Under the pieces are notes generated by a model. It saw only the letters and a list, made by a program, of their open reading frames with translations, was not told where the DNA came from and did not search any database. A stretch of DNA of 32,637 bases from a virus, in the UHGV virus genome UHGV-1394707; one strand, given 5' to 3'. The position numbers and the translations under genes are program-made. This document shows, in pieces, positions 10,278 to 32,108 of the stretch. Within the stretch, counting starts at the first letter, position 1; every line of letters begins with the position of its first letter.

Positions 10278-10500
10278 AGGGTGGGATGCGTCCTTTCAGT
10301 TCGGCAGGCGTGAACGTTTACGACAGGAGGTATTACATCGGGAGGCCGGAGGCCCGCCACCAAAGCCAATGGATTACACAGGGCACGATGGCACCCACGG
10401 AAGTTATTACATGAAAGGCTGGCAGTCCGTTGATATGCCAGAAATTATCCACCATTGCCGGCGCTACAGAGAAAAATACCATGTACAGAAAATTCAGTGA
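10270..10500 (+). CDS. Small hypothetical protein in the middle operon
   Basis: 76 aa from ATG 10270 (RBS GGGAGG; overlaps upstream stop); His/Tyr-rich, no transmembrane segment. Confidence 0.45.
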   Translation: MGKGWDASFQFGRRERLRQEVLHREAGGPPPKPMDYTGHDGTHGSYYMKGWQSVDMPEIIHHCRRYREKYHVQKIQ

Positions 10501-10612: not shown

Positions 10613-11035
10613 ATGCAGCATGATTTATTTGAACACGATCCGGCAATTCGCCAGTTAATCGGACATATTGATAACATCCCGGCCCCGGAACTGGAATCAC
10701 GCTGGCCCCGTTCGGTGGTTGATCTGATTGATGTTCTGGAAAACGAACTGAAACGCCAGAACGTCAGCAATCCCCGTGAGCTTGCCCGTAAACAGGCCGT
10801 TGCCCTGTCCTGTTTTCTGGGTGGACGGCAGTTTTACATCCCCTGCGGCGATACGATCCTGACCGCGTTACGCGACGATTTGCTTTACTGCCAGTTCAAT
10901 GGTCGTAACATGGAAGAACTGCGTCGCCAGTATCGCCTGTCCCAGCCGCAGATCTACCAGATTATTGCCAGCCAGAGAAAGCTGCATACACGACGTCATC
11001 AGCCTGATCTGTTCTCACCTGAAAGCCAGAAATAA
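10613..11035 (+). CDS. C: C, late transcription activator (Mor/C family)
   Basis: 140 aa, same length as Mu C; paralogous to the Mor ORF (shared ..FNGRN.. core); RBS GGGGGAAAA. Confidence 0.85.
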   Translation: MQHDLFEHDPAIRQLIGHIDNIPAPELESRWPRSVVDLIDVLENELKRQNVSNPRELARKQAVALSCFLGGRQFYIPCGDTILTALRDDLLYCQFNGRNMEELRRQYRLSQPQIYQIIASQRKLHTRRHQPDLFSPESQK

Positions 11036-11056
11036 CCGGCATCCTGCCGGTTATTT
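11030..11056. terminator. Perfect 12-3-12 palindrome overlapping the C stop codon; candidate middle-transcript terminator
   Basis: AAATAACCGGCA-TCC-TGCCGGTTATTT, then TTATTTCC on the + strand; symmetric, so could act in both directions. Confidence 0.5.
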
Positions 11057-11126
11057 CCTGTCACCATAATCCCGCACCTGCCATCTGATTTTTTAGACTG
11101 CCATCAGAGCATTTTTTCAGGGAAGC
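11057..11126 (+). promoter_or_regulatory. Candidate C-dependent late promoter upstream of lys
   Basis: Intergenic; CATAAT-CCCGCACCT (~11065-11079) lies 56 bp upstream of the lys ATG; the same CCCGCA core recurs upstream of two other late genes. Confidence 0.5.
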
Positions 11127-11645
11127 ATGATGGCGGGGATACCAAAAAAACTGAAAGCCGCACTGCTGGCGGCAACGATTGCCGGTGGCGGTGTGGGTGG
11201 TTATCAGGAAATGACCCGTCAGTCTCTGATCCACCTGGAAAATATCGCTTATATGCCTTACCGCGATATTGCCGGTGTGCTTACGGTCTGTGTGGGACAT
11301 ACCGGGCCGGATATCGAAATGCGCCGTTACAGCCATGCGGAGTGTATGGCTCTCCTCGACAGTGATTTAAAACCGGTTTATGCGGCAATCGATCGTCTTG
11401 TCAGGGTGCCGCTGACGCCATATCAGAAAACGGCGCTGGCAACGTTTATTTTCAACACCGGTGTTACCGCATTCAGTAAATCAACGCTGCTGAAAAAACT
11501 CAATGCCGGTGATTACGCCGGAGCGCGTGACCAGATGGCCCGCTGGGTGTTTGCCGCAGGCCATAAATGGAAAGGACTGATGAACCGTCGCGAAGTGGAA
11601 ATGGCAATCTGGAATATCAGGGGGGCGGATGACCTTCGCCAGTAA
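11127..11645 (+). CDS. lys: Endolysin, GH24/T4-lysozyme type with N-terminal SAR-like segment
   Basis: 172 aa; E-8-D-5-T catalytic spacing in ENIAYMPYRDIAGVLT; N-terminal Ala/Gly-rich weakly hydrophobic stretch KLKAALLAATIAGGGVGGY; same size and position as Mu lys. Confidence 0.85.
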   Translation: MMAGIPKKLKAALLAATIAGGGVGGYQEMTRQSLIHLENIAYMPYRDIAGVLTVCVGHTGPDIEMRRYSHAECMALLDSDLKPVYAAIDRLVRVPLTPYQKTALATFIFNTGVTAFSKSTLLKKLNAGDYAGARDQMARWVFAAGHKWKGLMNRREVEMAIWNIRGADDLRQ

Positions 11646-16742: not shown

Positions 16743-18042
16743 TCTGGCGTATGCCGCACGCCTCCCGCCAAAGGAGGCTGTCGCGTATTTCCGCGCCAAA
16801 GGCTACAACATCACCTGGAACTGGTACGAACAACTGGCAGACGCGCACGCCCGCGCCTTTACCGTTGCCAAAGCCACCCGGATGGATGTCCTGACCACAA
16901 TCCGTGAGGAAGTGGAGCGGGCTGTCAGTGAAGGCATCACCCGTGAGGAATTTACCCGCACACTGGCCCCCCGGCTGCAAAAACTCGGATGGTGGGGAAA
17001 ACAAATCATCGTGGATGCAGACGGAAACGCGAAGGTAATCGAGCTGGGCAGTCCGCGTCGTCTGGCAACCATTTATAACGTCAATACCCGTACGGCGTAT
17101 GGGGCAGGACGTTATGCGCAGATGATGAATACCGCCGATTTGTACCCGTACTGGCAGTACGTTGCCGTTATGGATGGCAGAACACGCCCGGAACATGCGC
17201 GGCTGCACAATATGGTTTTCCGGTATGACGACATTTTCTGGCAGACGCATTACCCGCCCAATGGCTGGAACTGCCGCTGTCGCGTCCGGGCGCTGTCTGC
17301 GGCCCGCATGAAAGAACTGGGGCTACAGGTCAGTTATGGTGCGTCATTCATGAATACCCGCGAAGTGGATGCCGGTACGGATGAAAGCACCGGAGAGATT
17401 TTCCGCACATCGTCAACCACGTTTGACAACGGTCGGGTAAAAATGACGCCGGATGTAGGCTGGTCATATAACCCTGGTTCGGCGGCATTTGGTACGGATC
17501 AGGCACTGATTCGAAAACTGGTGGAAATTCGCGACGCGCAGTTGCGTGAGCAGGTTGTTCAGACGCTGAATAACAGCCGGGAGCGTCAGCTTGCTTTTTC
17601 CCTCTGGCTTAAACGCCTAGCAGGATCACGTCAGACCGGTCATGAAATCCGGGCACTGGGTTTTATGACGGAATCGGTAGCTGAAGCCGTACATCAGCGC
17701 ACCGGGAATATGCCAGCCCGTCTGCTTGTGATGAACGGGAAAAGTCTGGCGACCACTGCTGATGCCGCCCTGAAACCGGAGGATTTACAGCATCTGCCGT
17801 CGCTGATGGCAAAACCACAGGCAGTATTGTGGGACAGGGAGAACCACCAGTTGCTGTATGTTGTGGCAACCCGTGACGGCATGGCCCGGATTGTGGTCAG
17901 AACATCACAGACAGTCGGCAGGCAGAATGACCGTGCGGATGTGCTGGTCAGTATCAGCCGCGTATCTGCACAGTCGCTTGAAACCGCGATTGCTGACAGG
18001 ATGATTGACGTACTGGAGGGGCATGTGGAGGTGAATAAGTGA
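16723..18042 (+). CDS. F: Head morphogenesis protein (Mu F-like)
   Basis: About 440 aa; follows the portal as Mu F does; start ambiguous between 16687 and ATG 16723. Confidence 0.75.
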   Translation: MPQQTIDLAYAARLPPKEAVAYFRAKGYNITWNWYEQLADAHARAFTVAKATRMDVLTTIREEVERAVSEGITREEFTRTLAPRLQKLGWWGKQIIVDADGNAKVIELGSPRRLATIYNVNTRTAYGAGRYAQMMNTADLYPYWQYVAVMDGRTRPEHARLHNMVFRYDDIFWQTHYPPNGWNCRCRVRALSAARMKELGLQVSYGASFMNTREVDAGTDESTGEIFRTSSTTFDNGRVKMTPDVGWSYNPGSAAFGTDQALIRKLVEIRDAQLREQVVQTLNNSRERQLAFSLWLKRLAGSRQTGHEIRALGFMTESVAEAVHQRTGNMPARLLVMNGKSLATTADAALKPEDLQHLPSLMAKPQAVLWDRENHQLLYVVATRDGMARIVVRTSQTVGRQNDRADVLVSISRVSAQSLETAIADRMIDVLEGHVEVNK

Positions 18043-18509
18043 GTCTTGATATGAACGTTGCCGTGGATGTGCGACGTATTCAGCTTGCACTGGATGAACT
18101 GGGAACCGTTACACGTGACCGCGCCATTCCCCGTGTGATGGCTGCGGCGCTGCTGTCATCCACGGAACAGGCATTTGAACGGCAGGCAGACCCGGATACA
18201 GGGAAAGGCTGGGAAGCGTGGAGCGATTCGTGGCAGGCATGGCGTCAGGATCATGGTTTTGTTCCGGGCAGTATCCTTACCCTGCATGGCGATCTGGCAC
18301 GCAGCATTACCACCGATTATGGACAGGATTATGCCCTGATTGGTTCGCCAAAAATTTATGCTGCCATTCATCAGTGGGGCGGTACACCCGATATGGCACC
18401 CCGCCCGGCAGGCGTTCCTGCGCGTCCTTATATGGGGCTGGATAAGACCGGGGAACAGGAAATTTTTGATGCCATCAGAAAACGCGTCAGCGCCGCTCTG
18501 AGGCAATAA
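18039..18509 (+). CDS. Virion morphogenesis protein, positional equivalent of Mu G (gp31)
   Basis: 156 aa; GTG start 6 nt after GGAGGTG and overlapping the F stop (GTGA). Confidence 0.7.
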   Translation: MSLDMNVAVDVRRIQLALDELGTVTRDRAIPRVMAAALLSSTEQAFERQADPDTGKGWEAWSDSWQAWRQDHGFVPGSILTLHGDLARSITTDYGQDYALIGSPKIYAAIHQWGGTPDMAPRPAGVPARPYMGLDKTGEQEIFDAIRKRVSAALRQ

Positions 18510-18640
18510 ACTGAATCAGACATGAAATCAGCCGCACAGATTTTTTAAAACGCGCCACGGGATTTTTAAACCGGTATTTAACGGTGTATGAATCCCGTTT
18601 TATCTTCCTTCCACTTTCTTTCTCCATTACTCAAATAGCA
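18510..18640. other. Candidate strong gyrase site (central non-coding region between G and I)
   Basis: 196-bp gap about 18.2 kb from the left end, i.e. near the centre of a ~37 kb Mu genome, where the Mu strong gyrase site maps (between G and I). Confidence 0.4.
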
Positions 18641-18705
18641 TAACCCCAGATTTTCCCGCACCTCCCGCAAACTGACTGCTCACAAACCATGATGAGCAGC
18701 AGGAC
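18641..18705 (+). promoter_or_regulatory. Candidate C-dependent late promoter upstream of I
   Basis: CATAACCCCAGATTTT-CCCGCACCT-CCCGCAAA (~18639-18671); CCCGCA core 51 bp upstream of the I ATG. Confidence 0.5.
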
Positions 18706-19791
18706 ATGAAAAAACACGCGATTGGCATTGCCGCACTGAGTGCGCTGTCCATTGACGATGACGGCTGGTGCCAGCTATTGCCTGCCGGTCATTTCAGTGC
18801 CCGTGATGGTCGTCCGTTTGATGTGACAGGCGGTCAGGGGTGGTTCATCGACGGTGAGATTGCCGGGCGTCTGGTTGAAGGCGTTCGCGCGCTCAACCAA
18901 GACGTGCTGATTGATTACGAGCATAACCAGCTACGTAAGGACAAAGGATTACCCCCGGAACAACTCGTCGCGGCTGGCTGGTTTAACGCCGATGAAATGC
19001 AGTGGCGTGAAGGTGAAGGGTTATTTATCCACCCACGCTGGACGGCGGCGGCCCAGCAGCGCATCGATGACGGCGAATTTGGTTATCTCTCTGCGGTTTT
19101 TCCGTATGACACCGCCACCGGTGCAGTGCTGCAAATCCGCCTTGCTGCGCTGACCAATGACCCCGGTGCCACCGGCATGAAAAAGCTGACCGCACTGGCG
19201 GCAGACCTTCCCGACATCCTTCAACAGGAGAACAAACCCATGAATGAAACGCTGCGCAAGCTGCTTGCGCGTCTTGGGGTGACTGTCCCCGAAAATGCAG
19301 ACATCACCGATGAACAGGCAACAGCGGCACTGACCGCGCTGGACACGCTGGAAATTAATGCCGGGAAAGTGGCGGCGTTGTCTGCCGAACTGGAAAAGGC
19401 ACAGAAAGCCGCCGTTGACCTGACGAAATACGTCCCGGTGGAAAGCTACAACGCCCTGCGTGATGAACTGGCACAGGCGACTGCACAAAGCGCCACAGCC
19501 AGCCTGAGCGCCGTTCTGGACAAGGCGGAACAGGAAGGCCGCATTTTCAAAAGCGAACGTACCTATCTGGAACAGCTTGGCGGTCAGATTGGCGTGGCGG
19601 CACTGTCGGCACAGCTTGAGAAAAAACAGCCTATCGCTGCGTTATCTGCCATGCAGACCACCACAGCGAAAATCCCGTCGCAAGAAAAAACGGCGGTGGC
19701 GGTGCTGTCTGCTGATGAACAGGCAGCAGTGAAGGCGCTCGGCATTACAGAGGCTGAGTATCTGAAAATGAAACAGGAACAAGAAAAATGA
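18706..19791 (+). CDS. I: Head maturation protease / scaffold (Mu I-like)
   Basis: 361 aa, same length as Mu I; directly precedes the major head gene; Ala/Gln-rich helical C-terminal half consistent with a scaffold domain. Confidence 0.8.
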   Translation: MKKHAIGIAALSALSIDDDGWCQLLPAGHFSARDGRPFDVTGGQGWFIDGEIAGRLVEGVRALNQDVLIDYEHNQLRKDKGLPPEQLVAAGWFNADEMQWREGEGLFIHPRWTAAAQQRIDDGEFGYLSAVFPYDTATGAVLQIRLAALTNDPGATGMKKLTALAADLPDILQQENKPMNETLRKLLARLGVTVPENADITDEQATAALTALDTLEINAGKVAALSAELEKAQKAAVDLTKYVPVESYNALRDELAQATAQSATASLSAVLDKAEQEGRIFKSERTYLEQLGGQIGVAALSAQLEKKQPIAALSAMQTTTAKIPSQEKTAVAVLSADEQAAVKALGITEAEYLKMKQEQEK

Positions 19792-24636: not shown

Positions 24637-24780
24637 TATTGAGAAAGCGGCGACAGCGATTGGCGTTATTCTGAAAAGTGGCCCGGAATGGGCCTTGTCT
24701 CTCCCGCTGTCCCGCTTTTTCCGGCACTGCCAGCAGGCGAAAACCCTCTCTCAATATCACCGTTAAATCAGGAAATCTCT

Positions 24781-26857: not shown

Positions 26858-28345
26858 ATGTTTGAAGATGCTTTAAATGCCGTTAATGCTGTCCGGGATA
26901 AAACCGGTGGAGGCAGGAAAACAACCGGCAAAGGCACGTTCCGTAACGTGCCGTTTCTCGTCATCGAGGAGCAAAAACAGGCTGGCGGACGTCGCCTGGT
27001 TAAACGCGAGTACCCGTTACGTGATACCGGCGGCGTCAATGACCTGGGGAAAAAGCTTCGCTCCCGTACATTCAGCGCCTGCATTCTGAACAGCAACGCA
27101 GAAACAGCCAGAGATGAAGCGGGTGCGCTGATGGATGCTCTTGATGCTCCGGGTAGCGGTGAGCTGGTACATCCTGATTTCGGCACTGTGGACGTCATGG
27201 TGGATTCATGGGAATGCCGCACTAAAGCGGATGAACTGAATTATTACGCGTTCACCGTTACCGTTTATCCGTCGTTGCAGGATACAGCCCCGGACGCAGA
27301 GACAGACACCAGTGCAGCCGTACCGGCACAGGCCGTTGCTGTAACCGGTTCTCTGGGAGATACGCTGTCCTCTGTCTGGCAGACTGTAAAAGATGGCACT
27401 GCGGCGGCAACCGCCGTGATGGAAGCTGTAACCGGTGTCATCGATGATATCAGTGATGCGGTGGACAATCTGGGGGTTACGCAGACTGTCAGCGGTCTGA
27501 TGGGATCGCTTTCTGCGATGAAAGGCTCTGTGACCAGCCTGATTAACCAGCCTGCCATGCTGGCCTCCTCGCTGATGGGGGCGCTGTCCGGCGTTTCATC
27601 GTTATGCGATACCCGGACAGCATTTTCCACATGGAACCGTCTGGCGCAGCGATTCGAACGTCGCCATGCCGCCACCGCAGGCAGACAGGGGACAATCACA
27701 ACCTCGTACAACAGTCCGGTTGCAGAAAAAAATATTGCCACACTGAACTACGTCATGCTGGCAGCGGCGCAGACATACCGGGCAGAAGCTGCCAGCCAGG
27801 CACTGACTGCGGCACTGGATTTCAGTCGCCGGATGGATAATGCCGCCCGTGCACCTGTACTGGATGCCCCGTCCACCACAACCGGCACAGCCAGCGGGGC
27901 CAGCAGCACATCTGCTACCGTCACACAGGGACAGTTACAGTTAACTGCCATAACCCCGGACGGCGGCTTTTCACAGGTATCCTTTTCAGACAGTGGTACA
28001 GCCACGCCCCCGGTATTTGAAAGTGTGTCCGATATCGGAAAAACAGCCGCCATGCTGGGGGCTGCACTGGATACCGTCATTCTGACGGCATCTGAGCAGG
28101 GCTTTTCGACAGACAGCGTTCAGCTTACGCAACTGCGTCTGCTGGTTGTTGCCGACCTGGAAAAACGCGGGCTGCAACTGGCGGGCAGTGAAATGCACCG
28201 CCTGCCGGAGACGATGCCTGCAATGGTGGCCCTGTACCGTTACACAGGAAACAGCCGGAACTGGCAACGGCTGGCCCGCAGGAACGGTATCAGCAACCCG
28301 TTGTTTGTTCCCGGTGGCGTCAGTATTGAGGTGATTAATGAGTAA
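26858..28345 (+). CDS. N: DNA circularization protein N-like tail/baseplate protein
   Basis: 495 aa immediately after the tape measure gene, where Mu N sits. Confidence 0.7.
28260..28337 (+). promoter_or_regulatory. Candidate C-dependent late promoter embedded in the 3' end of the N-like gene
   Basis: GGCTGG-CCCGCA-GGAA (~28271-28283); CCCGCA core 59 bp upstream of the next gene's ATG, matching the spacing upstream of lys and I. Confidence 0.35.
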
Positions 28346-29477
28346 TACCGTCACGCTGCGAACGGATGGCAGGCTTTTTACCGGCTGGACGTCAGTCTCT
28401 GTCACCCGCTCGATTGAATCCGTAGCCGGATATTTTGAGCTGGGGGTGAACGTGCCACCGGGCACGGATTTATCCGGGCTGGCACCGGGGAAGAAGTTCA
28501 CGCTCGAAATCGAGGGGCAGATTGTCTGCACCGGTTATATCGATTCACGGCGACGCCAGATGACCGCTGACAGCATGAAAATCACTGTCGCCGGACGTGA
28601 CAAAACGGCTGACCTGATTGACTGTGCTGCCGTTTACAGTGGCGGACAGTGGAAAAACCGCACACTGGAGCAGATTGCGCGTGACCTGAGCGCCCCTTAT
28701 GGCGTTACCGTTCGCTGGGAGCTTTCCGATAAGGAAAGTTCGGCAGCTTTTCCCGGCTTCACGCTGGACCATTCAGAAACCGTTTATGAGGCGCTGGTGC
28801 GTGCCTCCCGCGCACGCGGTGTACTGATGACCAGCAATGCCGCAGGAGAGCTGGTATTCAGCCGGGCTGCCAGCACAGCAACTGATGAGCTGGTTCTCGG
28901 AGAAAATCTGCTGACACTGGATTTTGAGGAAGACTTCCGCGACCGGTTCAGCGAATACACCGTCAAGGGGTATGCCCGCGCAAACGGTGCTGAGGGTGAC
29001 GATATTGATGCGAAAAGTATCGTCTCCCGGAAAGGGACCGCCACTGACAGTGATGTGACCCGTTACAGACCGATGATCATCATTGCCGACAGCAAAATTA
29101 CGGCGAAGGATGCACAGGCCCGCGCCCTGCGTGAGCAACGCCGCAGACTGGCAAAATCCATCACCTTTGAGGCAGAAATTGACGGATGGACACGCAAGGA
29201 CGGGCAACTCTGGATGCCGAACCTGCTGGTCACTATTGATGCCTCGAAATATGCCATCAAAACCACGGAATTACTGGTCAGCAAAGTCACCCTGATACTG
29301 AATGACCAGGACGGGCTGAAAACCCGCGTCAGCCTTGCACCACGCGAAGGCTTTCTGGTGCCGGTTGAAAGCGACCGTAAAAACAGGAAAGGCGGCGACA
29401 GTAACGGCGGTATTGATGCGCTGGTTGAAGATTATTATCGCAGACACCCGGAGAAAACGCCGCCGTGGAAAGAGTAA
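28338..29477 (+). CDS. P: Baseplate hub protein, positional equivalent of Mu P (gp44)
   Basis: 379 aa, start overlaps upstream stop. Confidence 0.7.
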
Positions 29478-31575: not shown

Positions 31576-32108
31576 CACCCTATCAGACGGCCTTTCTGCA
31601 ATTACTGCCGTCAGGGCTTGCCTGGAATAAAAGCCCCGACAGCAAATTATCTGCGCTGGCGCAGGCCATCAGCGACGTGATTGCCACTGCGGCGGATGAT
31701 GCGCGGCAAATGCTGCGGGAGCGTTTCCCTTCCACATCCCGCTGGTATCTGGGGGAGTGGGAATCATTTCTGGGGTTGCCGGACTGTACAAGCGAAAACG
31801 GCACCCTGTCCGAACGCCAGCGGGCTGCCGCGAATAAAATGCGTATGACCGGCAATCTGAGTCGGCGCTTTTATGAATGGCTGGCTGCGCAGTACGGTTT
31901 TACCGTCAGGCTGACGGATTCCACAGAAGGCCAGTGGGTTACGCAGGTCAATATTTACGGTATTAAAAATTATCGCAACGCAACGGTGCTGGATAATGTT
32001 CTGACGCCGTTACGTGTTTATGAATCGGGTGCGCTGGAATGTTTACTGGAGAAATATAAACCCGCACATCAGATTTATAAATTTGTTTACCATGACGGAG
32101 ATAACTAA
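31566..32108 (+). CDS. Baseplate/tail protein, positional equivalent of Mu gp48
   Basis: 180 aa, start overlaps upstream gene by 10 nt. Confidence 0.65.
   Translation: MAVTPYQTAFLQLLPSGLAWNKSPDSKLSALAQAISDVIATAADDARQMLRERFPSTSRWYLGEWESFLGLPDCTSENGTLSERQRAAANKMRMTGNLSRRFYEWLAAQYGFTVRLTDSTEGQWVTQVNIYGIKNYRNATVLDNVLTPLRVYESGALECLLEKYKPAHQIYKFVYHDGDN

Follow-up and report, generated by a model that had tools for sequence, protein, structure and literature searches.

Four late promoters of phage Mu are described in the literature (PMC2582627, PMC12867686), and the curated Mu record (AF083977) carries four 67-bp late promoter features citing Margolin, Rao & Howe 1989 (PMID 2522923). In Mu, initiation at Plys and Pmom is known to depend on the activator C; its binding site is a 16-bp imperfect dyad with its centre at -43.5, the C footprint spans about -30 to -55, Plys needs positions -52 to -34 plus the -10 region, and activation also depends on bases directly downstream of the dyad (PMC2582627). 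The consensus of the C site has been given as TTAT-N5-6-ATAA, and C activity has been linked to the beta sliding clamp (PMC12867686, 2026). At Plys, PI and PP, RNA polymerase can bind without C, which acts at isomerisation to a productive open complex, whereas at Pmom the step it promotes is not isomerisation: there it brings in the polymerase and assists promoter escape (PMC4461284). According to a 2025 preprint, C binds as a tetramer and contacts the alpha-CTD, sigma region 4 and the beta flap-tip helix.

The DNA analysed here is a 32,637-nt viral stretch (UHGV-1394707, hereafter the window), which by sequence comparison is a Mu-type prophage ~98% identical to phage Mu. Its first 25 kb align to Mu at 98.0% identity with 87% of the length covered, Mu position 1 corresponding to window position 348. 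Around the interval 11057-11126, which a sequence-only reading had singled out for the hexamer CCCGCA ahead of lys, identity is 98.5% to Mu and 98.3-99.0% to the remaining close relatives listed (D108, SfMu and PhiR68_1 among them). Throughout the late region a window position equals the Mu position + 650, and at this offset all of the Mu late-gene start codons (29/29) were recovered. At the left end the offset is 347, and its rise to 650 by window position 10500 implies that the early region carries insertions. The left-end immunity region (348-1890) matches Mu and PhiR68_1, while the match of D108, Mu_3F6 and SfMu to the window begins only at ~1891; an ORF at 686-1345 on the minus strand (219 aa), which we take from its position to be the repressor gene, is longer than the Mu repressor gene c (339-929).

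The relevant features, in window coordinates, are as follows; transcription starts (+1) are predictions good to ~2 nt, derived from the -10 hexamers together with the published centre of the C site.

10613-11035, + strand: gene C, late-transcription activator of the Mor/C family (Pfam PF08765 Mor, E = 8e-33)
11029-11057, + strand: terminator hairpin of the middle (C) transcript (13-bp stem, -19.3 kcal/mol, z = -7.3)
11053-11119, + strand: Plys, 65/67 identical to Mu 10403-10469 ('Late promoter activated by C, PMID 2522923')
11055-11070 (-51 to -36), + strand: Plys C dyad site, register from the published site centre
11065-11079, + strand: CATAATCCCGCACCT, the lys site with the hexamer within it
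11065-11073, + strand: Plys conserved box CATAATCCC
11094-11099, + strand: Plys -10 hexamer TAGACT, predicted +1 at ~11106
11127-11645: lys, phage lysozyme gene
18557-18598, + strand: hairpin terminator between gene G and PI (-19.8 kcal/mol, z = -3.5); UUUUAUCUU follows it
18627-18693, + strand: PI, 66/67 identical to the Mu late promoter at 17977-18043
18629-18644, + strand: PI C dyad site, with box CATAACCCC at 18639-18647
18655-18660 and 18664-18669, + strand: two copies of CCCGCA upstream of I
18668-18673, + strand: PI -10 hexamer CAAACT, predicted +1 at ~18680
18706-19791: Mu I protease gene
~24703-24716: CCCGC-TGT-CCCGC in the tail-chaperone frameshift region, coding, C box absent
~26785: CCCGCG at the end of the tape-measure gene, coding, C box absent
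26858-28345: N, DNA circularisation protein gene
27937-28003, + strand: PP, promoter of the P (tail/baseplate) transcript, 67/67 identical to Mu 27287-27353
27939-27954, + strand: PP C dyad site GTTA-N7-TAAC, with box CATAACCCC at 27949-27957
27978-27983, + strand: PP -10 hexamer TATCCT, predicted +1 at ~27990
28275-28280, + strand: CCCGCA in the codons GCC-CGC-AGG (Ala-Arg-Arg), near the C-terminus of N
28338-29477: P, baseplate hub protein gene

The identity to Mu and the PF08765 match bore out the earlier proposal of a Mu-type phage encoding a Mor/C-family activator; the naming of lys and the identities of I, N and P were likewise confirmed.

Judged by its sequence, the interval 11057-11126 is Mu's known C-dependent promoter Plys. 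With a probability of roughly 0.93, we read it as Plys of a Mu-type prophage and one of three C-dependent sigma-70 promoters (Plys, PI and PP), in which CCCGCA is not the recognition element. By their near-identity to the Mu features, all three are orthologues of promoters that were mapped by experiment in Mu. The suggestion of a C-dependent promoter ahead of lys thus held, as the site coincides with Mu-annotated Plys. Two substitutions separate it from the Mu sequence, a spacer change at -15 and a change at +12, within the transcribed region, and the box and -10 hexamer are unchanged. The hexamer itself (11071-11076) occupies -35 to -30, the slot of a -35 hexamer, where it abuts the dyad; only its CCC lies within the conserved box. 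PI differs from Mu by a single substitution at its upstream edge, again with box and -10 hexamer unchanged. Folding revealed hairpins upstream of both Plys and PI that a simple terminator scan had missed; the former lies directly upstream of Plys and is equivalent to a terminator annotated in Mu at 10383-10406, the latter matches the Mu terminator at 17908-17953, and U-rich tracts follow both. Strong terminators ahead of these two promoters mean that transcription must start afresh there.

The register was fixed from the Pmom dyad TTAT-N6-ATAA: centring it at -43.5 sets column 1 of the annotated features to -53, which places ATAA at -40 to -37 and the -10 hexamers at -12 to -7. An ungapped alignment of Mu's four late promoters contains an invariant A-T-A-A-n-C-n-C in one register, and at Plys, PI and PP the distance from the first A of ATAA to the start of the -10 hexamer is 28 bp. 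The signal common to the late promoters, as read from these alignments, is the box CATAAYCCC (ccATAAyCCC) and not CCCGCA, and the C site is predicted to be the imperfect dyad at -51 to -36, whose right half ATAA is extended as ATAAyCCC. CATAAYCCC has exactly three matches in the window, all on the + strand (11065, 18639 and 27949), and these are Plys, PI and PP; 0.47 matches were expected, and three were reached in 1 of 100 shuffles. When the box was combined with an NAnnnT hexamer at the fixed spacing, Plys, PI and PP alone were retrieved, against a shuffle mean of 0.17 and with three matches reached in 0/200 shuffles. Dyad and box together occupy 11055-11073, 18629-18647 and 27939-27957; they were found neither at 28275 nor at 24703 or 26786. 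A generic scan found no canonical sigma-70 promoter at Plys, PI or PP, which fits activator-dependent promoters lacking a -35 hexamer.

The picture upstream of I is mixed: the site does lie within a C-dependent promoter, as had been suggested, but the CCCGCA copies proposed as its C signal are shifted by 10 and 19 bp against the one in Plys, the first falling in the spacer (-25 to -20) and the second reaching two bases into the -10 hexamer (-16 to -11). PI-type spacers in the window (18655-18668) and in relatives are C-rich and usually have CG right before the -10 hexamer, the rest not being conserved; the spacer/-10 junctions read CCCG-CAAACT, CCCG-CACACT, ACCG-CAAAAT and GCG-TAAAAA. For P, the third site (28275) had been put forward as the promoter, which it is not: annotated PP lies ~340 bp further upstream, within gene N and ~348 nt upstream of the P ATG. 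In relatives whose P protein is 67-71% identical, CCATAACC[A/C]C is kept as the PP box, -388/-391 relative to the P ATG, and the first A of ATAA is followed at a distance of exactly 28 bp by TAATAT or TAGTCT, the surrounding coding sequence having diverged.

Our promoter alignment comprises 21 different sequences of Plys, PI, PP and Pmom, taken from phages with C, I or P proteins 54-100% identical to those of the window; a search of genome contigs with C as the query had yielded one relative only (Erwinia), and the diversity came from IMG/VR viral contigs. As the alignment was anchored on the box, columns -40 to -33 are conserved by construction and only the other columns are independent; among these, -11A and -7T are invariant (2.0 bits) at a fixed distance from the box in all 21 promoters, -51, -49 and -47 (1.5-1.7 bits) and -42 and -41 (1.3 bits) are conserved, and columns -32 to -13 hold 0.1-0.9 bits. 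In phages with C, I or P proteins 54-77% identical, box and spacing are kept but CCCGCA is not: the positions after CCC in Plys relatives are GCA, CGA or CGC, and the PI spacer is unrelated between lineages in which box and spacing are conserved.

Where C is of the Erwinia type (66% identical), the phages have the box altered to CCGGAATCCCC at Plys as well as PI; at these loci (L003 2450-2500; L025-L027; L053-L058 around 715-760) CAGATACCGGAATC[C/A]CC replaces ccATAAyCCC in the lys and I promoters at an unchanged distance to the -10 hexamer. The recognition-helix region of this C type differs at P112T and Q117D, and activator and box may have changed specificity together in this lineage. In the Erwinia tracheiphila Mu-like prophage (L003 2527-2610) the endolysin gene starts with tandem 9-bp CCCAAAAGC repeats encoding Pro-Lys-Ser, the copy number of which varies among the related contigs L025-L027.

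The sequence-only reading had taken CCCGCA for the C recognition motif, set at a fixed distance from lys, I and P and thereby marking the late promoters. The hexamer is indeed present at every coordinate given for the three sites, and it lies 42-63 bp upstream of 4/29 late gene starts (lys, I, P and S), which gives P = 0.002 in a positional test of the 40-65 bp interval; this interval was tuned post hoc, the significance is limited to it, and a neutral interval of 1-100 bp gives P = 0.18. Plys and PI also share the exact 10-mer TCCCGCACCT. Against this, the window holds 29 copies of CCCGCA on both strands versus 28.7 ± 5.5 expected from dinucleotide-preserving shuffles, so that the motif is not commoner than chance, an outcome that the reading had itself named as refuting. 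The 'fixed' spacing is only roughly so: the first lys ATG (11127) is 56 bp away (59 bp for the Mu-annotated ATG at 11130) and the I ATG (18706) 51 bp, as had been stated, but the distance to the P ATG (28338) is 63 bp instead of 59. Distance to a start codon is also no measure of position within a promoter: counted from the predicted transcription starts, the hexamers occupy different places in Plys and PI. Relative to the promoters, the copies stand at -35, -25 and -16, and the third site has annotated PP 340 bp upstream of it. The hexamer is unconserved at any site in relatives, in which ATAAyCCC is conserved, and the published C site has a different sequence (TTAT-N5-6-ATAA). We conclude that the near-equal distances from the three start codons are a coincidence, and a role of CCCGCA as the recognition motif is scarcely credible. 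The related CCCGC tandems reported near 24702-24715 and ~26786 exist as sequences, but their supposed relation to late promoters does not hold, both lying in coding sequence without a C box; the pattern CCCGC-N4-CCCGC is confined to the PI copy and is matched by 15% of shuffles.

Two further readings would leave the hexamer some function alongside the box. The shared 10-mer TCCCGCACCT, a 10-bp match between Plys and PI already noted in PMC4461284, might be a second functional element, be it the site of a downstream (promoter-proximal) C dimer, a sigma region 4 contact or a matter of spacer geometry: it sits at -36 to -27 in Plys and at -26 to -17 in PI, an offset of 10 bp or one helical turn, an exact 10-mer is calculated to occur by chance ~0.003 times in two 67-bp regions, bases just downstream of the dyad are reported to matter (PMC2582627), and the spacers of PI relatives stay C-rich, usually ending in CG before the -10 hexamer. 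However, PI relatives carry the unrelated TCTCCCGTTC, ATATCCGCTG, GGTTTACCTC and TTTCTTCCCC there, with box and -10 hexamer fixed, Plys relatives read TCCCCGATAC or TCCCCGCCAG in the equivalent stretch, the 0.1-0.9 bits of columns -32 to -13 point the same way, and the published Plys requirement comprises -52 to -34 plus the -10 region (PMC2582627); we regard such an element as very unlikely. Even less probable is a separate, unmapped promoter with a CCCGCA-type element upstream of P (28275) or S (32056). In its favour, ATAAACCCGCAC (32056-32067) shares 11/12 positions with the Plys box ATAATCCCGCAC and is found 52 bp upstream of the ATG of the tail-fibre gene S, and CCCGCA stands 63 bp upstream of the P ATG. 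At 28275, however, ATAA is absent upstream, CCGTTG occupies the would-be -10 position and a scan found no promoter-like site; the equivalent in relatives (P 64-67% identical) reads TCGCGCAGA, GCACGTCGT or GCGCGCCGT, so that the peptide is largely kept (Ala-Arg-Arg; Ser-Arg-Arg in one) while the DNA drifts and no longer contains the hexamer. These sequence features and the synonymous drift led us to reject a cryptic promoter at 28275. The look-alike upstream of S was rejected for its poor -10 hexamer at the right spacing (TGTTTA) and its lack of conservation: CCCGCG stands there in 19/22 close relatives, and CTAAACCGGCAC or ATAAGCCCGCAC in ~70% identical ones. An 11/12 match to a given 12-mer is calculated to occur ~0.14 times in the window, the Mu literature gives four late promoters, and the look-alike is probably due to chance. 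ATAAACCCGCAC lies inside gp48 codons.

Reading the three sites as Plys, PI and PP, C-dependent initiation in the window would be transferred from Mu by near-identity. C would be made from the middle transcript, its gene lying just upstream of Plys; at each late promoter the -10 hexamer would be recognisable and a usable -35 hexamer missing, and C, bound to the dyad just upstream of the -35 region, would let the host RNA polymerase form a productive open complex. The C protein of the window is 97.9% identical to Mu C, and its residue 120 (10970-10972, AGC) is Ser where Mu and 21/21 close IMG/VR relatives have Arg, as does the 66%-identical Erwinia-type C. A cryo-EM preprint places R120 among the helix-turn-helix residues of C inserted into the DNA major groove. 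The late activator may be weakened here by this private R120S in the recognition helix and the promoters less well activated; that R120S makes it defective or alters its specificity is quite improbable, as is, separately, a secondary role for TCCCGCACCT. Across 5426 complete E. coli genomes, the best match to 10900-11130 has 99.6% identity and no genome reaches 100%.

The interval 11057-11126 is therefore real, functionally important and already known, and it was the motif that had been misassigned. As these are textbook Mu late promoters, the discovery value is small and the use lies in annotation corrections. For searches of Mu-like prophages, the signal is ccATAAyCCC plus a -10 hexamer whose first base lies 28 bp downstream of the initial A of ATAA; the P-operon promoter, ~350 nt upstream of P and inside N, is missed by looking just upstream of the start codon. 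The comparative data add that box and spacing persist at 54-77% protein identity and that one lineage has changed ATAA to GGAA in both promoters examined.

Compared with known systems, the window and Mu have identical flanking genes at the late promoters (C-lys, G-I and N-P). Mu Pmom (Mu 35693-35759) lies beyond the window, which ends near the G-segment boundary; it shares the box register (TTAT-N6-ATAA at -50 to -37) and the distance to the -10 hexamer. The middle promoter of Mu, Pm, is the counterpart served by Mor, a paralogue of C (PF08765): the Mor dyad site likewise lies just upstream of a poor -35 region, and binding as a tetramer is given in the preprint, but Pm differs from the late promoters in recognition sequence and activator and is located upstream of the C operon.
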